Assembly (NCBI GenBank): GCA_050747885.1
Contig: JBOGJO010000034.1
Span: 69-64,068, forward strand
Origin: Thermoanaerobaculia bacterium
GTDB lineage: Bacteria > Acidobacteriota > Thermoanaerobaculia > UBA5066 > DATFVB01
Reading direction: 5' to 3'
DNA: 64,000 nucleotides
Positions 50,145-63,947 of the stretch are shown piece after piece (position 1 is the first letter of the stretch; each line of letters starts with the position of its first letter). The translations under genes and the position numbers were made by a program. The notes below the pieces were generated by a model. The model did not search any database. It saw only the letters and a program-made list of their open reading frames with translations, and was not told the DNA's origin.

Positions 50145-52796
50145 TCAATGGGGCTCTTCCTTCCCCCTCGTCAGGGCGATCGCGAACCTCTTGTCGGCCC
50201 GGAGGCCGGCAAATTCCGGGTCTTTTTCCACGAGCGCCGGGGGGTATCCTGATTGTACCGCCTTGCCGAGCTCGTCGAAGGCCGCCGGAAGGTCGTGGGC
50301 GATCACGTAAACCACGGAAGCCTGGTAATCGACGTCGGGGTCGCCGCGCCCGGCCTGCGAGGCCCGCCGGATTTCCGCGAGAGCCTCGGTCGGTTTGCCG
50401 GTTTTTGCGAGCGAACTGGCGAGGATCGAGCGGACGAGCCCGTCGCCCGGGTTGCGCTCGAGCTCCTTGCGGCACAGTTCGAGAGCGCGTGAATAGGCCC
50501 GCCGGGAGCCCTCCTGCCGCCCCGGTGTCCAGCGGAGGGCGTCTCCCAGGTTCGACCAGACCCGGTAGAGGTCGGGCGTGAGCTTCGTGGCTTCCTCGAA
50601 AGCGGCCGCCGACTGGGCGTAGTTCCCGAGAAAGAACTCGACGGTCCCGATGTTGGACTGGGCGAAGCCCGTGGGCTGAAGCGCCAGGGAGCGCCGGAAC
50701 GCTGCGAGAGCCTTCTCGAGATCGTTGGCGAGGAAGTACGCCCCGCCGAGGTTGGAGAGGGCCATCGCGTTGTCCGGCGTCAGCTCGGTCACGCGGCGGA
50801 ACGCCGCGGCGGCCTCTTCATATCGGCCCCGGGCGTAGTAGAACCCCGCGAGCTTGCTGTAACCGCCCCAGTACGTGGGCTGGAGATTGAGCGCCTCCCG
50901 GAACGCCTTTTCCGCGTCCGCGTCCCTGCCGGCGGCTCCCAGGGCTCGCGCCAACCCGAGCCTCGCCTCGAAGCTCGTCGGCGACGCGGCGAGCGCCTGT
51001 TGAAACGCCTCGACCGCGCCCGCGGCGCCCCCGGAATGGAGCCGGAGCTCGCCCAGCGTGATGTCCACTTCGATCAGCGACGGCCCCAGCTCGCGCGCGC
51101 GCCGCGCGGCGGTTTCCGCCTTCGAGGTATCTCCGGAATCGTGCGTCAGGTCGAAATGCTCGAGATATGCCCGGGCGAGCGAGGCAAACACGTAAGGCGA
51201 TCGCGGCGCCTCCTGCGACAGGGTTTCCAGGATGGCCGTGGCATTTTCGACCGACTCGCGGGTGTTGTAGTGCTGGAGAAGGCCGACCGCCTTCAAGTAG
51301 CGTTCCTGGTCCGTCCCGGAGGGCAGGCCCGACGCGGCGGAGACCCGTCGAACGGCCGGAATCGATTCCGCTTCGCTCACCTTCGCAACGAGGCGGTCCT
51401 GAAGCTCGAACAGGTCGGACGCGGAGCCGTCGAGCGTGCCGCCCGAGAGCTCCGCTCTCTTGCGCACGTCCCACAGCGAATACGTGATCCGCACCCGATC
51501 CCGGCTTCTCTGCACGGCGCCCTGGAGGAGCTGCGACGCGCCGAGGTCGCGGGCTGCGTTGAGCGGATCCGGCTCCTTCGCGGAAGCGGCAATGACCGCC
51601 GCGGGCGACACGACCTGGAGCCCGGTCGACCCCCCGATGGCCGAAGACACCGTCTCGACGAGGCCCTCGCCGAGAAGTTTTCCGTCCGGCGCGCTCGAGA
51701 GGTCGCGAAACGGCAAAATCGCCAGCAGCCTCGCGGGAGGGATCGCGGAGGCCGTCGGGGGCGCGGGCGAGGAGGCCGGCGGCTCCGCCTTTCGACGCGG
51801 GCGAAGAGTGATCACCAGCGCCGCCCCGGCGACCAGCGCCGCCGCCGCGCCGGCGGCGATCTTCGCGGATTTGGATAAGCGCCGCGGCGCCGGCAGGGGA
51901 ATCACGCTCCGGGACGTCGGACGGCGCGGGTCGATCTCCAGAAGCAGCTCTTCGATCGCGAGGCGCGCGTCGCCGATGTCGCGCAACCGCTGCGCGGGAT
52001 CTTTTTGAAGGCAGCGCGCGAGCATTTCGCGCAGAGCGGGAGGCGTTTCGGGGGGAAGCAAATCCCATTCCGGCTCCGACCGAAGGATCGCGGCAAAAGC
52101 GTCCGGCACGGAGTCTCCCGTGAAGGCGCGACGTCCCGAGAGACACTCGAAAACGATGCACCCGAAGGCCCAGATGTCGGTGCGCTTGTCGATGGCCTTG
52201 CCCCGGGCCTGTTCGGGGCTCATGAATTCGATCGTGCCGAGAATCACGCCGGGGCGAGTTTCGTCGAGGGCCGCCGTTGTTTCGCGGGAGAGGCCGCCCA
52301 CGACTTCCGAACGAAGGCCTCCCGCGATCTTGGCCAGGCCGAGGTCGAGGATCTTCGCGCGGCCGTCGGGCGTGACCATGACGTTGGCGGGCTTGAGATC
52401 GCGGTGAACGATTCCGCGCTCGTGGGCCGCTTCGAGGGCCTCGGCGATCTGGCGGGCGATCCGCAGGGTCTCCCGCATCGACAGCGGGCCGCGGAGATGG
52501 TCGGAGAGAGTCTTTCCCTCGACGAGCTCGAGGATGAGGTATCTCTGATCGCCGGCCTCTTCGGCGCCGTAGATGGCGGCGATGCCGGGATGGTTGACGG
52601 AAGCCAGGAGGCGGGCCTCCCGTTCGAAGCGGGAAATCCGCGACGCGTCGCGGCCGGACGACTCGGGGAGCACCTTGATGGCCACCTCGCGCCCGAGTTT
52701 CGTGTCGATCGCCCGGTAAACCTCGCCCATGCCTCCGGCCCCGAGAAGGTTTCGGATCTCGTAGGAGCCGAGTCGGGTGCCTGGTTCTAGTTCCAC
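50145..52796 (-). CDS. Ser/Thr protein kinase with TM segment and C-terminal TPR repeats
   Basis: …LGAGGMGEVYRA…AIK…, HRDLKPANVMV, DLGLAK. Mid-protein TM. Multiple TPR-like repeats in the C-terminal half. Confidence 0.85.
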   Translation of the reverse strand: MELEPGTRLGSYEIRNLLGAGGMGEVYRAIDTKLGREVAIKVLPESSGRDASRISRFEREARLLASVNHPGIAAIYGAEEAGDQRYLILELVEGKTLSDHLRGPLSMRETLRIARQIAEALEAAHERGIVHRDLKPANVMVTPDGRAKILDLGLAKIAGGLRSEVVGGLSRETTAALDETRPGVILGTIEFMSPEQARGKAIDKRTDIWAFGCIVFECLSGRRAFTGDSVPDAFAAILRSEPEWDLLPPETPPALREMLARCLQKDPAQRLRDIGDARLAIEELLLEIDPRRPTSRSVIPLPAPRRLSKSAKIAAGAAAALVAGAALVITLRPRRKAEPPASSPAPPTASAIPPARLLAILPFRDLSSAPDGKLLGEGLVETVSSAIGGSTGLQVVSPAAVIAASAKEPDPLNAARDLGASQLLQGAVQRSRDRVRITYSLWDVRKRAELSGGTLDGSASDLFELQDRLVAKVSEAESIPAVRRVSAASGLPSGTDQERYLKAVGLLQHYNTRESVENATAILETLSQEAPRSPYVFASLARAYLEHFDLTHDSGDTSKAETAARRARELGPSLIEVDITLGELRLHSGGAAGAVEAFQQALAASPTSFEARLGLARALGAAGRDADAEKAFREALNLQPTYWGGYSKLAGFYYARGRYEEAAAAFRRVTELTPDNAMALSNLGGAYFLANDLEKALAAFRRSLALQPTGFAQSNIGTVEFFLGNYAQSAAAFEEATKLTPDLYRVWSNLGDALRWTPGRQEGSRRAYSRALELCRKELERNPGDGLVRSILASSLAKTGKPTEALAEIRRASQAGRGDPDVDYQASVVYVIAHDLPAAFDELGKAVQSGYPPALVEKDPEFAGLRADKRFAIALTRGKEEPH

Positions 52797-52856: not shown

Positions 52857-53570
52857 TCACCAGATCCGGGTGTGGGGGAAAACTCCCCAGCTTGCCAGCC
52901 CCCGGGCGATGAGCAGGAGGCCGAGGAGACCGAACGCGGCCGCCGCAAAACGGCGCAGGCGCAGGAACGCGCCGGCGGCGCGGCCCGAAATCGCGAGGAG
53001 GAGGATGGCGGGAATCGTTCCCGCGCCGAAGACGAGCATCGTGAGCGCGCCCCCGAAGGCCGTCGCGGAGGCCGCGGCGCGGCTGGCGGCGGCGTAGACC
53101 ATGGAGCAGGGCAGGAGCCCCTGGACGACGCCGAGCAGGAGCGCGGCCGCGTAGGGGGGGGCCTGAAACGCCTCGCGGGCGCCGGCTCGCGCCAGCCGAT
53201 CGATGCCGACCGCCGCGATCAGGCGTTCCGGCCCCGGAAGGAGCCCTCCCGTCGAAAGGGCGAAGAGCAGGGCGAAGGACCCGGCCAGGATCGACACGGC
53301 TCCCGCGACACCCGCGCGAACGCTTGCGGCTTCGCCGATTTGTCCCAGCGCCCCGGCGATGGCGCCGATCGCCGTGTACATGGCGATCCGCCCGCCCAGA
53401 AACAGACTCCGAAGGACCGCGCGCGTTCCCGCCCCGCCATGGCCGAGCCGAGCGGAGCAAATCGCGACGTACGGACCGCACATTCCGACGCAGTGGGAGC
53501 TTCCGAGGAGCGAGGCGAGAAAGAGCAGCGACAGGTCTCCCGGGGGAAGGGCGTGGTGGTGCATGGGCAC
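52857..53570 (-). CDS. DsbD_2 / TauE-SafE-like membrane protein with HCxxMCGP motif (cbb3 oxidase-associated)
   Basis: MPMHHHALPP… then …SSHCVGMCGPYVA…. 6 TM. Positioned immediately after ccoS. Confidence 0.6.
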   Translation of the reverse strand: MPMHHHALPPGDLSLLFLASLLGSSHCVGMCGPYVAICSARLGHGGAGTRAVLRSLFLGGRIAMYTAIGAIAGALGQIGEAASVRAGVAGAVSILAGSFALLFALSTGGLLPGPERLIAAVGIDRLARAGAREAFQAPPYAAALLLGVVQGLLPCSMVYAAASRAAASATAFGGALTMLVFGAGTIPAILLLAISGRAAGAFLRLRRFAAAAFGLLGLLLIARGLASWGVFPHTRIW

Positions 53571-53577
53571 CGGGGGT

Positions 53578-53747
53578 CACGTCTTTGCGGGCGGACTCGC
53601 CTCGTCGCCTTTCGGCAGGGAAACGATCTGATACTTGATCTTCTCGACGTCTCGAAACTGTCCCGTTCGGATCGCCCAGAGGAAGACGCACCACGCCGCC
53701 AGTCCCATCAGGAACGCCATCAGGAAGAGATACAGGGTGATGTCCAT
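53578..53747 (-). CDS. ccoS: cbb3-type cytochrome oxidase maturation protein CcoS
   Basis: Manually translated 56 aa: MDITLYLFLMAFLMGLAAWCVFLWAIRTGQFRDVEKIKYQIV…. CcoS-like (W.VK.GQ(F/Y)DD). Not in the ORF track (too short). TAG-G-ATG coupling to ccoO. Confidence 0.65.
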
Positions 53748-53748
53748 C

Positions 53749-55479
53749 CTAAGGCGCTCCGGCCGACGACGGGCCGGGGAAACCGGCGGTCGTGGGCACC
53801 GGCGGCGGGCTCGGGGACCGCGCGAGGGAGAGGGCGTAGTAAACGAGGGCCCAGCGCCTTTCCTCGGCGACCGCGTTCTTTTCGAGGTCGCTCATCTTCG
53901 AGAGAACGTCGGAGGTGGGAAGTGTTGCGACGTAGGTCTGGATCTCCTGGATCTCCGGATCCGAAAATGCCGGCTTTCCGCCGATGAGCTGCCGGTAAGG
54001 ACCCATGTCGGTGTAGGCCTCTTTCGGATACAGGATCGAGTCGTAGAAAGAAGGCATCGGGGTGCCGTTGAGCCCCGTGTTGAAGGTCCGGTACACGTCC
54101 TGCGGAGAGTTGCCGAACTTGAAGTTTCCAGTCGTGAAGTCGAAAGGACGAATCGGGACTTCCCAATCGTCGGCGAGGGCGGCGGCCGACGGTCCGTCCC
54201 CCTTGCCGGTCATTCCGTGGCAGCTCCAGCATTGGAGAACCCGGAAGACCATTCGGCCTTCGTTCAGCACGGCGGCCGGCGCTTCTTTGGGAGACGGGTA
54301 CGGCGGCACCGGAATCGTGATCGACGGGGGCACGGGCTCGGTTTTGAAGCGGTCCGAGAACGTCTTCACGTAATCGACCAGGTCCCAGCGGTCCTGCTCC
54401 GGCAGGAAATGTCCGTCCTGCATGTTGCCCCAGGCCGGCATGATCTGGCCCTTCCGGACGCCCCGGGTGATCGTGCGGAAGATGTCCTCGTCGCGGGGAA
54501 GCGCCCCCGACGGCGTCGTACGGCTCTTGAACACGCCGAAGGTGAAGTTTCGAGGTTGGGGGTTGAGAAAATGGTACGCGTCGTTGAAGTTCGTGGAGGA
54601 GTTTGCATCGGCGGTGAGCCGCCCGTTTCCGTAAGCCCCGTGGCACCCGACGCACTTCTTTTCGAAGATCGCCTTTCCGCGCGACACGCGCAGGTCGAGG
54701 GCCTCGGTCGGAGTCGGCCGCGAGTTCGTCGGCCACGGCTCCCAGATCCGCCAGTCGCCGATCGCGGTGCCGATCTTCTGAAGATACGCTTCGACGGCGA
54801 TCATCTCGCCCGTCGGGCGCGGCCCGTAGTCGTGCATGTCGATGATGCCGTCGCCCCGGGTTCCGTCTGCGTTGAGCGGCCAGACATCGAGGTCTTTCCA
54901 GTTCGGGGGGAGCTCGTCCGGAGTTACGCTTCCGTCGCCGTTCTTGTCGAGCTCGGTCTTGGTCACCCGGCCGTCGTGGTTCTTGTCGTTCTTCGCGATG
55001 AATTCGCGGACCACTTTGTCACGGGCCGGATCGTCCGCGTAGAGCCATTGAAACGACGGCATGATCGATTCGGGCTCGACGGCGCGGGGGTTCCAGTGGT
55101 GCGCGTAATGCCATTCGTCGGACCGGCGATTGCCCTCGCGCGAGAGCTCGGGGCCGATGCGCCTCGTGCCGAACATCTGGGGAAGGTCGTATGCGATTTC
55201 ACCGGCCTGAGAGACGGGTCCCCACTTGTCGGTGTCGCGGTTGACCGGCCGGATGTACTGAGAGTGGCAGTACCAGCAGCCCTCACGGATGTAAACCTTC
55301 CGGCCCGACTCCTCGAGAGCCGTCCGGTGGGGCGAAGGAATCGTGGTTCCCTCGATGGTGCGGACGATGCCGGGGCGGGTCGTTTTCTTCTCGAGCCACG
55401 GCAGGACGCCCTGGCTGGTCATCGCGAGCGCGTAGAACCCGACGGCGGCGATGAGGATGATCGGCTCGATGCGTTTCAT
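53749..55479 (-). CDS. ccoO: Fusion of the cbb3 oxidase mono-heme subunit CcoO with a diheme cytochrome c (CcoP-like), with two internal EF-hand-like Ca-binding loops
   Basis: CcoO part …CWYCHSQYIRP…MPSF…. Linker DKNHDGRVTKTE and DKNGDGSVTPDE. Two further heme motifs CVGCHGAYGNG and CWSCHGMTGKG. Paralogous to the protein at 57064-57825. Confidence 0.8.
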   Translation of the reverse strand: MKRIEPIILIAAVGFYALAMTSQGVLPWLEKKTTRPGIVRTIEGTTIPSPHRTALEESGRKVYIREGCWYCHSQYIRPVNRDTDKWGPVSQAGEIAYDLPQMFGTRRIGPELSREGNRRSDEWHYAHHWNPRAVEPESIMPSFQWLYADDPARDKVVREFIAKNDKNHDGRVTKTELDKNGDGSVTPDELPPNWKDLDVWPLNADGTRGDGIIDMHDYGPRPTGEMIAVEAYLQKIGTAIGDWRIWEPWPTNSRPTPTEALDLRVSRGKAIFEKKCVGCHGAYGNGRLTADANSSTNFNDAYHFLNPQPRNFTFGVFKSRTTPSGALPRDEDIFRTITRGVRKGQIMPAWGNMQDGHFLPEQDRWDLVDYVKTFSDRFKTEPVPPSITIPVPPYPSPKEAPAAVLNEGRMVFRVLQCWSCHGMTGKGDGPSAAALADDWEVPIRPFDFTTGNFKFGNSPQDVYRTFNTGLNGTPMPSFYDSILYPKEAYTDMGPYRQLIGGKPAFSDPEIQEIQTYVATLPTSDVLSKMSDLEKNAVAEERRWALVYYALSLARSPSPPPVPTTAGFPGPSSAGAP

Positions 55480-55482
55480 GGC

Positions 55483-56886
55483 TCAGCTCCACTGCGGTTC
55501 GGGCGCGGCGGCGGCCGAACGGGACAACGCCGGCCCGGAAACGGCGGTCTTGTAGAAGTTCCACATCCCGAGGATCGCGCCGATGTCCATCGTCACCCCC
55601 GCGAGCGTTCGTGTGAACCAGTACGGCTTCATGGCGACCATGGAGTCCACGAAATCCGCGCCGGTCTGGAGCATCTCGCCCTGCATCAGTCCTTGCAGGG
55701 TGAGAACTCCCGCCATCACGGAAAAGCCGCCGATGGTGAGCCAGTAGTGCCATTGAGCGAGCTTTCGGGAATAGAGCTCCCGGCCGGACAACCTCGGGAT
55801 CACGTAATAAAGGCCCGCCGTGATCCAGAGAATGAACGTGCCGAACACCGTGAGGTGGGAGTGCGCGATGACGAAGTCGGTGAAATGCGTCAGCCGCTGA
55901 ACTTCCCGAAGCGCCTCGGTGGAGCCCTGGAAGCAGCCGAGCAGGTAAAAGAGCGCGCCGACGATCAGGAATTTAGCCGTGTACGATTCCTGGAACCGCT
56001 TCCAGTTTCCGACCATCGTTCCGTAGAAATTCTGGATCACCGTCCAGACCGGAATGATGAGCATCATGGAAGCGACGATCGCGATCGTCTGGGTCCAGTA
56101 CGGGATCGGGCTGTAGATGTAATGGTGGGTCCCGACGAAAGGGTAGAAGAACGCGAGCGACCAGAATCCGATGAGCGAGAGGCGGTGGCTGTACAGCGGC
56201 TGACGCGCGGCAAGCGGAAGAAAATAGTAGATCACCGCGAGTCCGGCCGGAGTGATCCAGAGCCCCACGACGTAGTGGATGTAGAGACCGTGCATCGCGG
56301 CGTTGTTCACGCCCGCGAAGTGGAACGGCAGCAGGAAATGCCCGAACGCGTAATTGAACGTCGTCCAGACGAAGGCGGCCGTGAGGTACCAGAGGGTCAC
56401 GTAGATCAGTTTTTCCTTCCGGTGGATGATCGTCATGATGATCTGGATCGTGATCAGCAGGAAAACGAGCTCGACGAGGATGTTGGCCCAGGTGGGAAAT
56501 TCGCCCGCTTCGATTCCAAGGTTCGAGCCGAGCGGCAGTGAAATCAGAGCCGCCGTAAAGCCCAAATTCCAGACCCAGAAGATCGCTCGGCTCCAGTTTT
56601 CCTTGTACATCCTCACGCCGCACAGGCGCGGAACCATGTAATACGTCAGGCCGAAGATCGTCGTCGTGAACGCCCCGAAAACGACGCCCATGACGTGGAC
56701 CGGCCGGAGCCGGCCCCACGTCAGCCAGGAAATGCCCCCGAGGAAGTCATAGAAGTTGAACTTGATCGAGAGGATGACGCCGATCGTGGGCGCGAAGACG
56801 AGCCAGAAAGCGCCCGACAGGAGGAACTGGAGAACGACCGTCCGATCGACGAGGTCGTCCGCTGGACGTTCCGCGATGCTGCTCAT
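55483..56886 (-). CDS. ccoN: cbb3-type cytochrome c oxidase subunit I
   Basis: 467 aa. 12 TM. Heme-copper oxidase His ligands (…FVIAHSHLTVFG…, …VGTHHYIY…). AGAGGAGGA Shine-Dalgarno sequence. Confidence 0.9.
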   Translation of the reverse strand: MSSIAERPADDLVDRTVVLQFLLSGAFWLVFAPTIGVILSIKFNFYDFLGGISWLTWGRLRPVHVMGVVFGAFTTTIFGLTYYMVPRLCGVRMYKENWSRAIFWVWNLGFTAALISLPLGSNLGIEAGEFPTWANILVELVFLLITIQIIMTIIHRKEKLIYVTLWYLTAAFVWTTFNYAFGHFLLPFHFAGVNNAAMHGLYIHYVVGLWITPAGLAVIYYFLPLAARQPLYSHRLSLIGFWSLAFFYPFVGTHHYIYSPIPYWTQTIAIVASMMLIIPVWTVIQNFYGTMVGNWKRFQESYTAKFLIVGALFYLLGCFQGSTEALREVQRLTHFTDFVIAHSHLTVFGTFILWITAGLYYVIPRLSGRELYSRKLAQWHYWLTIGGFSVMAGVLTLQGLMQGEMLQTGADFVDSMVAMKPYWFTRTLAGVTMDIGAILGMWNFYKTAVSGPALSRSAAAAPEPQWS

Positions 56887-57063: not shown

Positions 57064-57825
57064 CTAGGGGCCCTGTTCCGGCGTCCGCCGCGGGCCCGGC
57101 GGGCCGAGGCTCAGGACGTAGTGCGCAAGGTCCCAGGCTTCATCCTTGTTGATCGAGTCGGCGTACGACGGCATCGGAGTGCCCGACAGGCCGGTGATGA
57201 AGACGCGGTAGATGTCGGCCGCGGTGTCGCCGCACTTGATGTGTCCCTCGGTGAGGTTGTAGGGCACGATCGGATTGCCCCAATCGTCCTTGAGCTCGTG
57301 GGCGGACGGACCGTCGCCCTGCCCCTTGTCGCCATGGCACTGGACGCACTGATACTTCACAAACAGCGCGCGGCCGCGTTGGATGGACTCGGGATTGTCG
57401 GCGGGCTCGGCAGGAATCGTGATCGAGGGCTGCGGTTTTTCCTTCGTCCACCGATCGGAAAACGTCTTGATGTAGGAGATCACGTCCATGCGCGCGCGGT
57501 GGCCGATGGCGAACCACGTGGGCATGGCCGTGCCGTAGAGGCCGCCTTTGAGCGTCTTTTCGAGGTCCGCGTCGGTCGGCAGCGAGCCCGAGGGAGTCGA
57601 GCGCCATTTGAACGTTCCCTCCCGGTAGTCGCGCGGTTTCGGCGTGATCCACTCGGCGTACTCGCCCTGGCCGTTGCCCGCGTCGCCGTGGCAGGACAGG
57701 CAGTAGCGCTCGTAGACGAGTTTTCCGCGGGCAGGGCTTCCGGGCTCCTCCGCCCGGAGGGCGAGAGCCCCCGTCAGAAGGGCCCCGATCCCCAGAACAG
57801 CGATTCTTTGAACGAAGCGGTTCAT
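57064..57825 (-). CDS. Periplasmic diheme c-type cytochrome (Cyc1/CcoP-like)
   Basis: Signal peptide. CLSCHGDAGNG and CVQCHGDKGQG. GAGGAGG Shine-Dalgarno sequence. Confidence 0.8.
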   Translation of the reverse strand: MNRFVQRIAVLGIGALLTGALALRAEEPGSPARGKLVYERYCLSCHGDAGNGQGEYAEWITPKPRDYREGTFKWRSTPSGSLPTDADLEKTLKGGLYGTAMPTWFAIGHRARMDVISYIKTFSDRWTKEKPQPSITIPAEPADNPESIQRGRALFVKYQCVQCHGDKGQGDGPSAHELKDDWGNPIVPYNLTEGHIKCGDTAADIYRVFITGLSGTPMPSYADSINKDEAWDLAHYVLSLGPPGPRRTPEQGP

Positions 57826-59182: not shown

Positions 59183-59938
59183 TTATTTCGCGGTCAGGTG
59201 AAAGTCCAGCGTCGCGGTTTTCCCCGCGACGACCGTCACCGGCGTCGTTTTTTCTCCAGCGGCCTCGTGCCAGGCGACCAGCGCGTAGGTTCCGGGCGGC
59301 ACGTCGTCGATCTCGAATTTTCCCTCGGCGTCGGTCGTCGCGAAATACGGGTGATCGAATTCCAGGATCCACGAGCGCATCCACTCGTGGACGTCGCACT
59401 TGACCCGCAGGATGGTGGCCTGGGGCGGGAGGGGCTTGACGACCGAGAACCCTTTGAAGGGAAGCGCCACGTTGTAGAGCGTCGCGTTCGTGGCGGCGAT
59501 CTGCGGGTGAGTGTTGTGGAGGATGGGATCGTCCGAGACGACCTTGAGCTGCTGGCCCACGCAGGCGCCCTGGACGCGCGGGCGAAACATGCAGTGCTCG
59601 TTGGTCAACGTGATCGGACTCGTGGGTTTCGCCTTCCCCTTCGAAATGTCCTTGATGTAGACCTCGACGTTGGCGAGACCTCCCGACTTTCCGACGTCGT
59701 AGAGGGGGTTGACGATCGTCTTCCCGCAGTAATCCTGGTTTTTCGTCGTCTTGATGGGGGCGATGGCCGGAGCGGGTCCGCTCAATTTCACGACGCCGCT
59801 GATCTTTCCACCGTTGGCCACCGTTTCGACCTGGTACGGGGCCGCGAGGGCCATGGGGACTGCTGCCAGAATGACAACAATTCCAGCGAGGCACGATTTC
59901 AGGACGCGCGAAACCGAGGATTTGCGGGCGGTTTTCAT
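59183..59938 (-). CDS. Secreted cupredoxin-like (type-1 copper) protein
   Basis: Signal or anchor sequence. Ligand pattern …HNTH… then C-D-V-H-E-W-M (C-x2-H-x2-M). AGGAGA Shine-Dalgarno sequence. First gene after the promoter. Confidence 0.6.
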   Translation of the reverse strand: MKTARKSSVSRVLKSCLAGIVVILAAVPMALAAPYQVETVANGGKISGVVKLSGPAPAIAPIKTTKNQDYCGKTIVNPLYDVGKSGGLANVEVYIKDISKGKAKPTSPITLTNEHCMFRPRVQGACVGQQLKVVSDDPILHNTHPQIAATNATLYNVALPFKGFSVVKPLPPQATILRVKCDVHEWMRSWILEFDHPYFATTDAEGKFEIDDVPPGTYALVAWHEAAGEKTTPVTVVAGKTATLDFHLTAK

Positions 59939-60806: not shown

Positions 60807-62852
60807 TCAGAGCCTGATCGAGCGAAGTCGCGAGGAGTTTGCGACCACCAGGAGGCTGGAGGCGACCATCGCCGCCGCGGCCACGATGGGGGCGAGTCGT
60901 CCGGCGGCTGCGAGACCCAGACCCGCGACGTTGTAGAAGAACGCCCAGAAAAGGTTCTGTCGGATCGTCCGCAGCGTGCGCCGCGCCAGTCGCAGGAGGC
61001 GCGGAATGGTCCGGAGATCGTTTCCGAGGACCGTGACCGAGGCATGTTCCCGGGCGAGATCCGCGGCGTTCCCGAAAGCCACGCCCACGTCCGCGGCGTC
61101 GAGCGCAGCGGCGTCGTTCACGCCGTCGCCGACCATCGCCACGACTCCCCCGGTGGCGGCGCGGCGCAATCCAATGGAGGCGACTTTGCCGGCCGGCGAA
61201 AGCTCCGCCTCCGCGCCGGCAATCCCGAGATCGCGGGAAATCGTCGCGACGACGGCCTTCCGGTCCCCGGACAGCATTGCAACCTCGATTCCGTCTGACG
61301 CCAGGCTCGACAGGGCCTCCCGCGCTTCGGGCCGGATCGTGTCTTCGAGAACGGCGCTTCCCGCAAAACGGCCGTCGAGCGCGCAGAGCAACTCGATCCC
61401 GTCGGGAGGCTCCGGGACGGGAATCGCGATTCCCCGATCGCGCAGAAGGCGCCGGGATCCCACCAGGACAAGGGTTCCGTCCACGCGGCCTTCGGCCCCG
61501 CCGCCCGCGATCGACCGGATCTCCTGCGCCCGGGGAACCTCGAGACGCCGCCGGGCGGCCTCGATCTCGACGGCGGAGGCGAGGGGATGAACGATTCCGG
61601 CTTCGATCGCCGCGGCCGCGCCGAGCGCCGCATCCTCCAGAGTGGATCGGGCAATCGCCGGGCGCCCCGCGGTCAGCGTGCCGGTCTTGTCGAAAATCAC
61701 CGTCCGAACTCTCGCCAGGGCCTCGAGAGCCTGGCCGCTGCGGACGATCACGCCCTGCGCGGCCGCCTGGGACAGGGCGATCGTCGTCGCCAGCGGCGTC
61801 GCGAGCCCGAGCGCGCAGGGGCAGGCGACGACGAGCACCGAGAGCGCCGCCAGGAAACCCGATCGCCAGTCGCGCCCCAGAATCCCCCAGCCGAGAAGAC
61901 TCGCGGCGGACAACGCGAAGACGAGAGGGACAAACGCCGAAGCGACCCGGTCGGCGAGGATGGCGATCGGGGCCCGCCGGGCCCGAGCCTCGAGAGCCAG
62001 CCGGTGAACCCGGCTGGCCAGAGTTTCGGTCACGCCGGAGGATCGAATCTCGAGCGCCCCGTCGAGCGCCGTCGAGCCCGAGAACACCCTGTCGCCGGCG
62101 CCCACGCGTCTCGGGACCGACTCGCCGCTGAGCGCGGACTCTTCGACGTCGGAGGAGCCGTCGCGCACGACGCCGTCGACGGGGATCTTCTCGCCCGCTC
62201 GAACCAGGACGATGTCGCCCGCGGACAGAGCGCCGACGGGAACCTCGACGGAATCGAATCCCTTCCGGACGCGCGCCGCGCCAACGGTGCCGTCGACGAC
62301 GTCGCGCAGCGCCGCCGTGGCGCGCTCCCGCGCCCGGGCGTCGAGGTAACCGCCGAGCGTGACAAGCACGAGAATCATCGTGGCCGAGTCGTAGTACGTG
62401 CCGAATCTTCCCGAAATCGTCGAGATCGCGGAGGCCCCGATCGCGGCGAGGCTGCCGCCGGAAATCAGGAGGTTCACGCCGATGGTTCCGCGGCGCGCCG
62501 CGGCGAGCGCGGAGGCGAGCATCGGCGCTCCGAGGAGGAGATAAACCGCCGTGGACAGGCCGAGCATGATCCAGGACGTCGTGTGGAGGATCGGGAGGCC
62601 AAGAGCTCGGTAGGAGCCCACATAGAGGAGAGACTGGAACAGCATGACGTTTCCCGCGAGAATCGCCGACAGGGCGAGCTTCGCGAGATACCAGCCGCTC
62701 TCGCCGCCGGCCTCCCCGACGAGGTGGAAGACCGTTCGGCAGCCGGCGCAGCAAAACGCGCGCCCTTCGTCCCGAACCGCGCGGGACGGCAGGGGAAGCT
62801 CGCAATGCGCACAGAGGTCCGTCGCCAGCGGCGGGTTTTGCGTGTAGGGCAT
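60807..62852 (-). CDS. ccoI: Copper-translocating P1B-type ATPase (CcoI/FixI-like)
   Basis: ATG at 62852 (MPYTQNPPLATDLCAHCELP…FCCAGC, a FixI-type N-terminal metal site). CPC, DKTGTLT, GDGVNDAPAL. The track ORF extends further 5' as an antisense artefact. Confidence 0.85.
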   Translation of the reverse strand: MPYTQNPPLATDLCAHCELPLPSRAVRDEGRAFCCAGCRTVFHLVGEAGGESGWYLAKLALSAILAGNVMLFQSLLYVGSYRALGLPILHTTSWIMLGLSTAVYLLLGAPMLASALAAARRGTIGVNLLISGGSLAAIGASAISTISGRFGTYYDSATMILVLVTLGGYLDARARERATAALRDVVDGTVGAARVRKGFDSVEVPVGALSAGDIVLVRAGEKIPVDGVVRDGSSDVEESALSGESVPRRVGAGDRVFSGSTALDGALEIRSSGVTETLASRVHRLALEARARRAPIAILADRVASAFVPLVFALSAASLLGWGILGRDWRSGFLAALSVLVVACPCALGLATPLATTIALSQAAAQGVIVRSGQALEALARVRTVIFDKTGTLTAGRPAIARSTLEDAALGAAAAIEAGIVHPLASAVEIEAARRRLEVPRAQEIRSIAGGGAEGRVDGTLVLVGSRRLLRDRGIAIPVPEPPDGIELLCALDGRFAGSAVLEDTIRPEAREALSSLASDGIEVAMLSGDRKAVVATISRDLGIAGAEAELSPAGKVASIGLRRAATGGVVAMVGDGVNDAAALDAADVGVAFGNAADLAREHASVTVLGNDLRTIPRLLRLARRTLRTIRQNLFWAFFYNVAGLGLAAAGRLAPIVAAAAMVASSLLVVANSSRLRSIRL

Positions 62853-62924
62853 CCCGATCGCGATGATACTTCGCCGAGCCTGGAGGCCCGGCCGCCGGGC
62901 CGTGGAGAAGATAGAATCTCTCCC

Positions 62925-63947
62925 GTGATCGTTCCCGACGCGCTCGGTCGCCCTCTCCGAAACCTGCGCGTTTCGGTCACCGACCGCTGCAACCTGCGCT
63001 GCCAGTACTGCATGCCGGAGCGCGAGTACGCATGGCTCCCGCGAAAGGACATCCTCGATTTCGAAGAGGTGGCCAGCCTCGTCGATGCGTTCACGGATCT
63101 CGGGGTCGAGAATGTGCGTTTGACCGGAGGAGAACCGCTCGTGAGGCGCGATCTCGCGGCGCTCGTTCGGCTGCTTTCCGGAAGGCCCGCGATCCGGGAC
63201 CTCGCGATGACGACCAACGGCGTGCTGCTCTCCGAGAGCGCCGCGGCGCTGCGCGCCGCGGGCCTGAGGCGCCTCACGGTGAGTCTCGACACGCTCCGCC
63301 CGGAGCGGTTCCGCGAGATCACGCGCTTCGACGACCATGCCCGGGTGCTCGCCGGGATCGACGCCGCCTGCCGAGCCGGGTTCGAATCGGTCAAGATCGA
63401 CGCGGTCGTGATCCGCGGCGTCAACGACGATGAGCTCGCGGCGCTGCTCGAATACGGCAAGACGTCGGGCGCGGAAGTTCGCTTCATCGAATACATGGAC
63501 GTGGGCGGAGCGACGCGCTGGTCGCGGGAGAACGTCGTCTCGAGGGCGGAGATGCTCGGCACGCTGGCGCGCCGCTTCGGGCCGATCGAGCCTCTCTCCG
63601 AAAGGTCCTCGGCGCCGGCCGAGCGCTTTCGCCTTGCCGACGGAACGGTTTTCGGGATCATCGCGTCCACGACGGCGCCGTTTTGCCGCTCCTGCGACCG
63701 CAGTCGCCTGACCGCGGACGGTGTCTGGTACCTGTGTCTCTATGCTTCCCGCGGGGCCGATTTGCGGGGGCCGCTGAGGGCCGGGGCGTCGCGCGAGGAG
63801 CTCAAGGCCCTGATCGAATCGACGTGGCGCGTTCGGGCGGATCGGGGCGCCGAGGAGCGGCTCGGCGTGCGGAACCGCTCCCCGCTCGTTCGGATCGGCT
63901 CGCTCCGGCAGGATCCGCACCTCGAGATGCACACGAGGGGAGGCTGA
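62925..63947 (+). CDS. moaA: GTP 3',8-cyclase (radical SAM)
   Basis: …LRVSVTDRCNLRCQYCMP…, with a C-terminal CxxC…C cluster (…TAPFCRSCDRSRL…). GTG start at 62925. Confidence 0.9.
   Translation: MIVPDALGRPLRNLRVSVTDRCNLRCQYCMPEREYAWLPRKDILDFEEVASLVDAFTDLGVENVRLTGGEPLVRRDLAALVRLLSGRPAIRDLAMTTNGVLLSESAAALRAAGLRRLTVSLDTLRPERFREITRFDDHARVLAGIDAACRAGFESVKIDAVVIRGVNDDELAALLEYGKTSGAEVRFIEYMDVGGATRWSRENVVSRAEMLGTLARRFGPIEPLSERSSAPAERFRLADGTVFGIIASTTAPFCRSCDRSRLTADGVWYLCLYASRGADLRGPLRAGASREELKALIESTWRVRADRGAEERLGVRNRSPLVRIGSLRQDPHLEMHTRGG

Follow-up and report, generated by a model that had tools for sequence, protein, structure and literature searches.

An EF-hand module inserted into the CcoO domain of a CcoO–diheme cytochrome c fusion encoded in a cbb3-type oxidase operon of uncultured Thermoanaerobaculia

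The CcoO (FixO) subunit of cbb3-type cytochrome c oxidases, known from the Pseudomonas stutzeri chains 3MK7_B and 9G6B_B, comprises an anchor helix, a mono-heme core with a Met-Pro motif and a C-terminal helix, and its gene follows ccoN. CcoO–cytochrome c fusions as a class are also catalogued (PRK14486), and EF-hand loops are common in secreted bacterial proteins. The only Ca2+ site known to us in a cbb3 oxidase, located close to the heme propionates where CcoN and CcoO meet, has no relation to the insert described below, and we know of no EF-hand module in any heme-copper oxidase. In this study we analysed a window of 64,000 nucleotides (nt) from a Thermoanaerobaculia bacterium (assembly GCA_050747885.1, contig JBOGJO010000034.1, positions 69 to 64,068), which encodes on its minus strand a 576-amino-acid (aa) fusion of CcoO to a diheme cytochrome c. 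The fusion shares the CcoO features listed above. It differs in the segment before the C-terminal helix, which is a variable stretch of ~33 aa in P. stutzeri and a 75-aa EF-hand module here, and in the diheme extension. What is new is the combination of a conserved, putative EF pair with an extra tandem loop in a heme-copper oxidase subunit, within one uncultured soil clade. A literature search limited to open-access papers found no description of an EF-hand in a cbb3 oxidase or CcoO, or of this natural fusion.

The product of the open reading frame (ORF) was 100% identical to a protein of an NCBI metagenome-assembled genome (MAG) named 'cbb3-type cytochrome c oxidase subunit II [Thermoanaerobaculia bacterium]', and it carries three c-type heme motifs (CWYCH at aa 68–72, CVGCH at aa 276–280 and CWSCH at aa 417–421). 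Its N-terminal part showed the traits of CcoO, namely one CxxCH with a Met ligand in the core, an N-terminal anchor helix and an adjacent ccoN, and C68, C71, H72, M140 and P141 were invariant in an alignment of 74 sequences. Pfam FixO (PF02433) matched aa 52–240 on profile positions 46–219 of 219 with 144.1 bits (gathering score 29.6), while the NCBIfam ccoO equivalog TIGR00781 was missed (139.6 vs 200.65 bits). By these profile scores the fusion is a member of the Pfam CcoO/FixO family, of a divergent lineage outside the narrow TIGR00781 equivalog. The best NCBIfam match (E = 1e-46) was NF011054 / PRK14486, 'bifunctional cbb3-type subunit II/cytochrome c', which likewise joins a C-terminal cytochrome to CcoO. 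With 294 residues, however, that model is too short for a protein that adds a ~300-aa diheme extension and the EF module, and the score of 159.8 against a cutoff of 447 means that the fusion is not a member. In the model-based topology, all of the protein beyond the anchor helix is periplasmic. The CcoO–diheme architecture first proposed for the window in a sequence-only reading is real: dozens of independently assembled genomes carry the fusion, as do more distant relatives.

Alignment to CcoO is significant on the N-terminal side of the EF-hand module and weak on its C-terminal side. The solved chains 9g6b_B and 3mk7_B align at fusion aa 50–149, and a second, statistically insignificant stretch sets fusion aa 221–242 on their residues 180–201. 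Because the FixO match runs through aa 240 and the CcoO chains align on both sides, the EF loops are assigned to extra sequence that interrupts the CcoO domain before the C-terminal helix, and not to a linker between the CcoO and diheme domains, where the sequence-only reading had placed them. The variable segment measured about 70–75 aa in the fusion, compared to about 33 aa in P. stutzeri CcoO and about 10 residues in the shortest fused homologs (422–434 aa). Judged from the aligned homologs, the CcoO segment before the C-terminal helix is a length-variable and tolerant insertion hotspot. An unrelated insert of ~95 aa without EF loops occupied the same site in ~550-aa forms of Methylomirabilota/Rokubacteria and some Acidobacteriota (loci L034–L057 and L061, e.g. 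L061:8001-9653; equivalent to window positions 54814-55041), and other fused homologs, such as that of L058, had no insert there.

Evidence for the EF-hand character of the insert came from its loops. A PROSITE PS00018-type EF-hand pattern, scored over each loop plus the following Leu, matched at aa 165–176 (loop 1) and aa 178–189 (loop 2), and these were its only two matches in a six-frame translation of the whole 64-kb window. At least one match occurred in 0.18% of 20000 shuffles of the protein, and two matches in none. The pair of consensus loops, separated by one residue as originally noted (a Leu), is real and lies beyond a chance pattern. Both loops have oxygen ligands at positions 1, 3, 5 and 12, Gly at position 6 and a hydrophobic residue at position 8, a canonical set that a third loop further downstream (loop 3, aa 198–217) fails to reproduce. 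An all-oxygen ligand set with a bidentate Glu12 is classic Ca2+ geometry. In the profile search, a check named in the sequence-only reading, Pfam EF-hand families matched just below their gathering thresholds (EF-hand_5, E = 4e-5; EF-hand_1, 1.3e-4; EF-hand_7, 6e-4) and Dockerin did not match. Some close homologs have precomputed PF13202/PF00036 matches.

Compared with described EF-hand proteins, the module was distinctive in its setting and spacing. Secreted or periplasmic EF proteins (EfhP of P. aeruginosa; P0126–P0131) have extracytoplasmic DxNxDGxVxxxE loops as well, and the loop 2 motif LDKNGDGxxTPDELP recurs near verbatim in multi-EF-repeat proteins. Those proteins, however, are stand-alone, with loop spacings mostly of 22–25 or 28 residues, whereas the loops studied here are embedded in a redox subunit, lie 13 residues apart and are followed by a non-canonical third loop. 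Dockerin type I resembles the insert in having two close, extracytoplasmic EF-like Ca2+ loops, but differs from it in that the insert has a long entering helix and Glu at position 12 of loop 1. Neither a Pfam Dockerin (PF00404) match nor a dockerin among the fold matches was obtained; dockerin identity was ruled out on these grounds, and the suggestion that the insert is dockerin-like was abandoned.

Structure prediction gave a fuller picture of the module than two loops. The full-length AlphaFold2 (AF2) model of the fusion (predicted local distance difference test score, pLDDT, 79.5; predicted template modelling score, pTM, 0.81; module blocks 77–93) contained a helix of 14 residues at aa 151–164, loop 1, a one-turn helix at aa 174–177 and loop 2, followed by short helices at aa 187–189 and 194–197, isolated bridge residues and a helix at aa 224–238. 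The entering helix of loop 1 was clear, and its exiting helix had only 4 residues. In a model of the isolated module (pLDDT 68.6), strands at aa 171–173 (loop 1 positions 7–9) and aa 211–214 pair in the same way as the beta-bridge by which paired EF-hands are coupled. All fold matches of the module were EF-hand domains, and all were weak. The second strand falls in loop 3, which from D210 onwards tracks EF positions 5–12 (D-G-x-I-D-x-x-D) and has a longer, non-canonical N-terminal half; D198, P201, G209–G211, D214, H216 and D217 were invariant. The pLDDT of aa 200–220 was 77–86 in the full-length model vs 53–64 in the isolated module, and the higher value in the complete protein suggests that the module packs onto the rest of the subunit.

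Shorter homologs then indicated which loops form the core. In the 560–565 aa forms, loop 2 is replaced by 2–5 unrelated residues and loops 1 and 3 are retained, with a spacer of 14–16 residues between them that is typical of an EF pair. The resulting order of helix, loop 1, SELDALAQKPANFAEL, long loop and helix is that of an ordinary EF-hand pair. In a neighbour-joining tree, built on columns outside the insert and carrying no bootstrap support, one-loop forms were nested twice among two-loop forms; from this we provisionally conclude that the ancestor of the clade had loop 2 and that at least two losses followed. Loops 1 and 3 appear to be the conserved core EF pair, and loop 2 an accessory element standing where loop 1 would otherwise have its exiting helix. 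The two-loop description in the sequence-only reading therefore holds for the existence of loops 1 and 2, but it overlooked both the third loop and the dispensability of the second.

We next assessed how widely the module is distributed and how strictly it is conserved. Among the best 120 database matches, loop 1 was present in every protein with at least 65% identity, and loop 2 was also present in the 569–578 aa forms. The module alone was searched exhaustively with HMMER against 1.84 billion 50%-cluster representatives and was found in one full-length cluster plus fragments; the other matches were stand-alone secreted multi-EF-repeat proteins, reached mainly via loop 2 and its tail. With a single full-length carrier cluster, the insert is indeed the non-standard feature it had been taken for. 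Three representatives (P0121, P0123 and P0178) were frameshifted mistranslations of the same high-GC gene, with correct segments flanked by out-of-frame Arg/Pro/Ser-rich sequence; they were ignored, and they call for caution with library counts. Among GTDB species representatives, close homologs were found in 33 genomes, all of them MAGs and forming one tight clade. The two-loop form accounted for 20 of the 33, all Thermoanaerobaculia (Acidobacteriota), and the one-loop form for the remaining 13, all Steroidobacteraceae (Gammaproteobacteria). An origin of the insert in a frameshift or join artefact was ruled out, as the architecture with the insert occurs in >70 protein clusters and in these 33 species-level genomes.

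The loops also carried a signature of selection. Across 34 genes, loop 1 positions 1, 3, 5, 6, 7, 8, 9, 12 and 13 were invariant in the protein, including D1, N3, D5, G6, R7, V8, T9 and E12, while the codons varied synonymously (Asn3, AAC 15 times and AAT 19 times; Gly6, four codons). The core GDGxxDxHD of loop 3 was likewise invariant in the protein, with synonymously variable codons. Because ligand residues stay invariant while codons change synonymously, loops 1 and 3 are, by this codon pattern, under purifying selection. Column identity was 75% in the module compared to 53–75% in the remaining protein. Of the two findings named beforehand as fatal to the idea, absence of the insert from close homologs through an assembly artefact and lack of conservation of the loop residues, neither was observed: the insert is present in the close homologs, the ligand positions of loop 1 are invariant in 34 genomes and loop 2 is conserved wherever it is present.

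The C-terminal part of the fusion was related to a different cytochrome than had been supposed. Its aa 266–481 matched Kustc0457 (PDB 6H5L_B) with E = 1.8e-50 by sequence and with E = 2.7e-17 and a TM score of 0.91 in Foldseek, and M347/P348 and M475/P476 were invariant in the 74-sequence alignment. On these matches the diheme part is classed as a Kustc0457-type diheme cytochrome c. In Kuenenia stuttgartiensis, Kustc0457 is the free diheme partner of the reducing, hydroxylamine oxidoreductase (HAO)-like protein Kustc0458 of anammox, whereas the domain studied here forms one chain with CcoO, contains ~55 additional aa (aa 482–536) and is accompanied by a free paralog in the same operon. This free cytochrome shared 43% identity with the fused domain over 231 aa (E = 8e-57), which bears out the paralogy first proposed. 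The extra segment (53872-54036, minus strand) lies before the last helix of the diheme domain, is helical with high pLDDT in the AF2 model and has no counterpart in Kustc0457 (6H5L_B) or the free paralog. Canonical CcoP gave no PDB match to the diheme domain, and TIGR00782 (CcoP) scored 42.7 bits against a cutoff of 179.95, matching only the 30 residues of aa 264–293. Together with the Kustc0457 fold match, this rules out canonical CcoP identity, and the earlier label of a CcoP-like domain was dropped. Like CcoP (cbb3 subunit III), the domain carries two c-type hemes and serves electron entry, but it has no membrane anchor of its own. The operon has no separate ccoP; the diheme domain takes the functional position of CcoP without being its ortholog.

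The fusion gene belongs to a compact operon, whose features are collected in Table 1. CcoN aligned over its full length to 9g6b_A and 3mk7_A, kept the YY motif and the histidines that bind heme b, heme b3 and CuB, and scored below the NCBIfam equivalog cutoffs. Since these metal-ligand His residues and the YY motif are kept, the oxidase looks catalytically intact. Six genes stand in the order 251-aa protein, Cyc2-like protein, diheme cytochrome, CcoN, fusion and DsbD_2 protein, and this order was kept, at 50–89% protein identity and in both phyla, in the related loci L001–L033 with enough flank (truncated L022 excepted). The free diheme cytochrome gene lay directly upstream of ccoN in all of these loci except L022. 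The same six-gene order at this level of identity in Thermoanaerobaculia and Steroidobacteraceae implies that the cassette probably moved between phyla.

Table 1. Features of the oxidase operon and of the fusion protein, in window coordinates.
Feature	Position (nt)	Strand	Remarks
CcoI-like P-type ATPase	60807-63932	-	same strand, tightly spaced cluster
251-aa secreted protein, C-terminal CarboxypepD_reg fold	59183-59938	-	conserved cassette starts with this gene
Cyc2-like fused cytochrome-porin candidate, 445 aa	57836-59173	-	AIPAFARKTGLRCTSCHESWPVL, Cyc2 signature
Free periplasmic diheme cytochrome c, probable electron donor	57064-57825	-	paralog of the fused diheme domain
ccoN, catalytic subunit I, C-family heme-copper oxidase	55483-56886	-	Pfam COX1 3.4e-77
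CcoO::EF-hand::diheme cytochrome c fusion, electron-entry subunit	53749-55479	-	start codon 3 nt past the ccoN stop codon
N-terminal membrane anchor helix, aa 4-29	55393-55470	-	AF2 helix 4-29; topology as CcoO 3mk7_B
CcoO cytochrome c core, aa 50-146	55042-55332	-	aligns to 3mk7_B/9g6b_B residues 48-146, E about 2e-31
CcoO heme motif CWYCH	55264-55278	-	inside the CcoO core; axial ligand motif Met140-Pro141
EF-hand module, aa 147-222	54814-55041	-	inserted in the CcoO variable segment
Entering (E) helix of loop 1, aa 151-164, PARDKVVREFIAKN	54988-55029	-	AF2 helix, block pLDDT 91-93
EF loop 1, aa 165-176, DKNHDGRVTKTE	54952-54987	-	EF-hand consensus match; invariant ligand positions
EF loop 2, aa 178-189, DKNGDGSVTPDE, accessory	54913-54948	-	conserved in 569-578 aa forms
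Third, non-canonical loop, aa 198-217, DVWPLNADGTRGDGIIDMHD	54829-54888	-	invariant core GDGxxDxHD; putative loop 1 pairing partner
CcoO C-terminal helix, aa 223-242, TGEMIAVEAYLQKIGTAIGD	54754-54813	-	weak second 3mk7_B/9g6b_B stretch; FixO profile end; AF2 helix 224-238
Kustc0457-like diheme cytochrome c domain, aa 258-555	53815-54708	-	CVGCH 54640-54654, CWSCH 54217-54231
DsbD_2 protein	52857-53570	-	downstream of the fusion gene

The 445-aa neighbour had no Pfam, NCBIfam or PDB sequence match. According to Keffer et al. (PMC8406198), the signature AXPXFAR[Q/K][T/Y]...CXXCH...PXL is unique to Cyc2 fused cytochrome-porins, which have a length of at least 365 aa. The sequence AIPAFARKTGLRCTSCHESWPVL near the N-terminus of the neighbour fits this signature, its length lies in the Cyc2 range, and the strict signature was present in 29 of the 33 related loci. 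The order Cyc2, diheme Cyc1 and cbb3 is the scheme proposed for neutrophilic Fe(II) oxidation (PMC7029218), and by analogy the operon suggests an Fe(II)-to-O2 chain. Cyc2-like neighbours were also found in distant Acidobacteriota loci, among which L058, L066 and L078 are insert-free and L061 has the unrelated insert. A tie between the EF insert and a Cyc2 partner was ruled out by these four loci, and the EF module is accordingly not a prerequisite for that linkage.

Several further features of the neighbourhood were observed. The N-terminal 170 aa of the 251-aa protein are unannotated and hold the motifs LHNTHP and C-D-V-H-E-W-M; the latter (CxxHxxM) has the type-1 copper ligand spacing of amicyanin. 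By analogy with rusticyanin, the protein could be a cupredoxin-like carrier, an idea that found no Pfam or PDB sequence support. Homologs of this protein also stand ahead of ccoN in 14 of 47 distant loci. The CcoI-like ATPase gene lies upstream in the Acidobacteriota cassette and downstream in the gammaproteobacterial version. Most of the loci L002–L033 have ~750 nt between the fusion and DsbD_2 genes (e.g. L002:9701-10460), room for a small gene, and the window (53571-53748, 178 nt) and L001 are without this extra space. Directly downstream of the oxidase cluster lies an ORF (50145-52796, minus strand) for a Ser/Thr protein kinase that has C-terminal TPR repeats and a TolB_N-like region in its middle; few related loci (L001, L005, L013 and L031) had a homolog close to the cluster.

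Taking the evidence together, we lean towards reading the module as a structural element that is constitutively loaded with Ca2+, lies where the CcoO heme domain adjoins the diheme domain, and stabilises and perhaps shapes the electron-entry face. The protein is part of a divergent, apparently intact cbb3-type (C-family) oxidase, in which a Kustc0457-type diheme cytochrome joined to CcoO substitutes for CcoP; a module of ~75 residues is inserted into a surface-exposed CcoO stretch of variable length, just ahead of the C-terminal helix. The core of this module would be an EF pair, running from the helix at aa 151–164 through loop 1 and a short linker to the 20-residue loop at aa 198–217 and on toward the C-terminal helix, with loops 1 and 3 joined by a short beta-bridge typical of paired EF-hands. 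Loop 2, which stands where loop 1 normally would have its exiting helix, would be an optional extra site, so that the number of Ca2+ ions bound might be two in forms without loop 2 and as many as three in the 576-aa protein. Periplasmic Ca2+ reflects or exceeds the external level (PMC9132961); because it follows the outside concentration, the waters of soils or sediments would keep the sites filled permanently, or at least most of the time. The Ca2+-stiffened element would then fix the geometry, and perhaps a docking surface, for electron entry from the soluble diheme cytochrome. The electron route would lead from the Cyc2-like outer-membrane Fe(II) oxidase through that cytochrome to the fusion subunit.

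However, several observations weigh against this interpretation. All Pfam EF-hand scores were under the gathering thresholds (EF-hand_5, 23.3 vs 25.9; EF-hand_1, 21.7 vs 25.4), and loop 3 has Asp at position 12 and is without the canonical ligands at positions 1 and 3. The spacing of 13 residues between loops 1 and 2 was unmatched among 149 other bacterial EF-repeat proteins, whose spacings cluster at 22–25 and 28 residues with a minimum of 15. In the two-loop forms loop 1 has no complete exiting helix, and the fold may deviate from a classical EF pair. A structural role is, moreover, the default argument for extracytoplasmic EF-hands, and EF-less relatives (L058, L061, L066 and L078) adjoin Cyc2-like genes too.

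The best-surviving alternative is a Ca2+-responsive switch, in which EF occupancy would shift the diheme domain or the binding of the donor and so tune electron entry; we regard it as possible but unlikely. The activation of bacterial diheme cytochrome c peroxidases depends on Ca2+, which counts in its favour, as do the consensus loops with Glu12 as in sensor EF-hands and the position of the module directly ahead of the helix and linker leading to the diheme domain. EfhP offers a precedent, being a periplasmic EF-hand Ca2+ sensor with a dissociation constant of 13.7 µM and a conformational change (PMC9132961). Soil Ca2+, however, is usually far above micromolar, and with the periplasm tracking the outside the sites would be saturated. 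Loop 2, the potential site of cooperativity, was apparently lost twice while the gene was kept, no partner or output is evident, and the short helices flanking the loops leave little hydrophobic surface to expose.

The unusual 13-residue tandem spacing, unlike that of ordinary EF pairs, would fit a Ca2+-dependent docking pad for the free diheme cytochrome or a partner such as the 251-aa protein, dockerin-like in function but not in ancestry. The insert sits at the surface of the electron-entry face, and both candidate partners are co-conserved in the operon. Nevertheless, the same partners stand next to the EF-less genes of L058, L061, L066 and L078, and the missing dockerin matches and un-dockerin-like loop 1 described above also speak against such a pad, which we consider improbable. 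Slightly less probable still is the binding of another pathway metal (Fe2+/Fe3+ or Mn2+), in which case the loops might serve an iron-oxidising periplasm as a local metal sink or sensor: the presence in the operon of a candidate Cyc2-like Fe(II) oxidase and the invariant His216 of loop 3 (DxHD), atypical for Ca2+ sites, would fit it, but the ligands of loops 1 and 2 have the geometry of Ca2+ sites, and Cyc2 is thought to hold iron outside the cell. Very improbable is a neutral relic, an inert spacer captured from a secreted EF-repeat protein, since the likeness of loop 2 and its tail (LDKNGDGxVTPDELP) to secreted multi-EF-hand repeats, the tolerance of the site for no insert or other inserts and the loss of loop 2 in some lineages are set against invariant ligand residues with synonymous codon turnover in two phyla and retention of the module in 33/33 close genomes, a selection signature by which the relic is already disfavoured for loops 1 and 3.

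If Ca2+ binding by the structural module favoured here is true, the module would be a new type of accessory element on the electron-entry side of C-family oxidases and would provide a handle on how donor cytochromes are positioned. We think it rather unlikely that the module goes further and makes the electron entry of a proton-pumping oxygen reductase depend on periplasmic Ca2+ or another divalent metal, within a horizontally mobile Cyc2–diheme–cbb3 cassette; were this metal dependence true, the enzyme would be the first among respiratory heme-copper oxidases to contain its own metal sensor. The cassette itself, which reads as a self-contained Fe(II)-to-O2 chain, is probably more consequential than the EF module. 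Its common occurrence in uncultured soil Thermoanaerobaculia and Steroidobacteraceae points to unrecognised iron oxidisers and to transfer between phyla.

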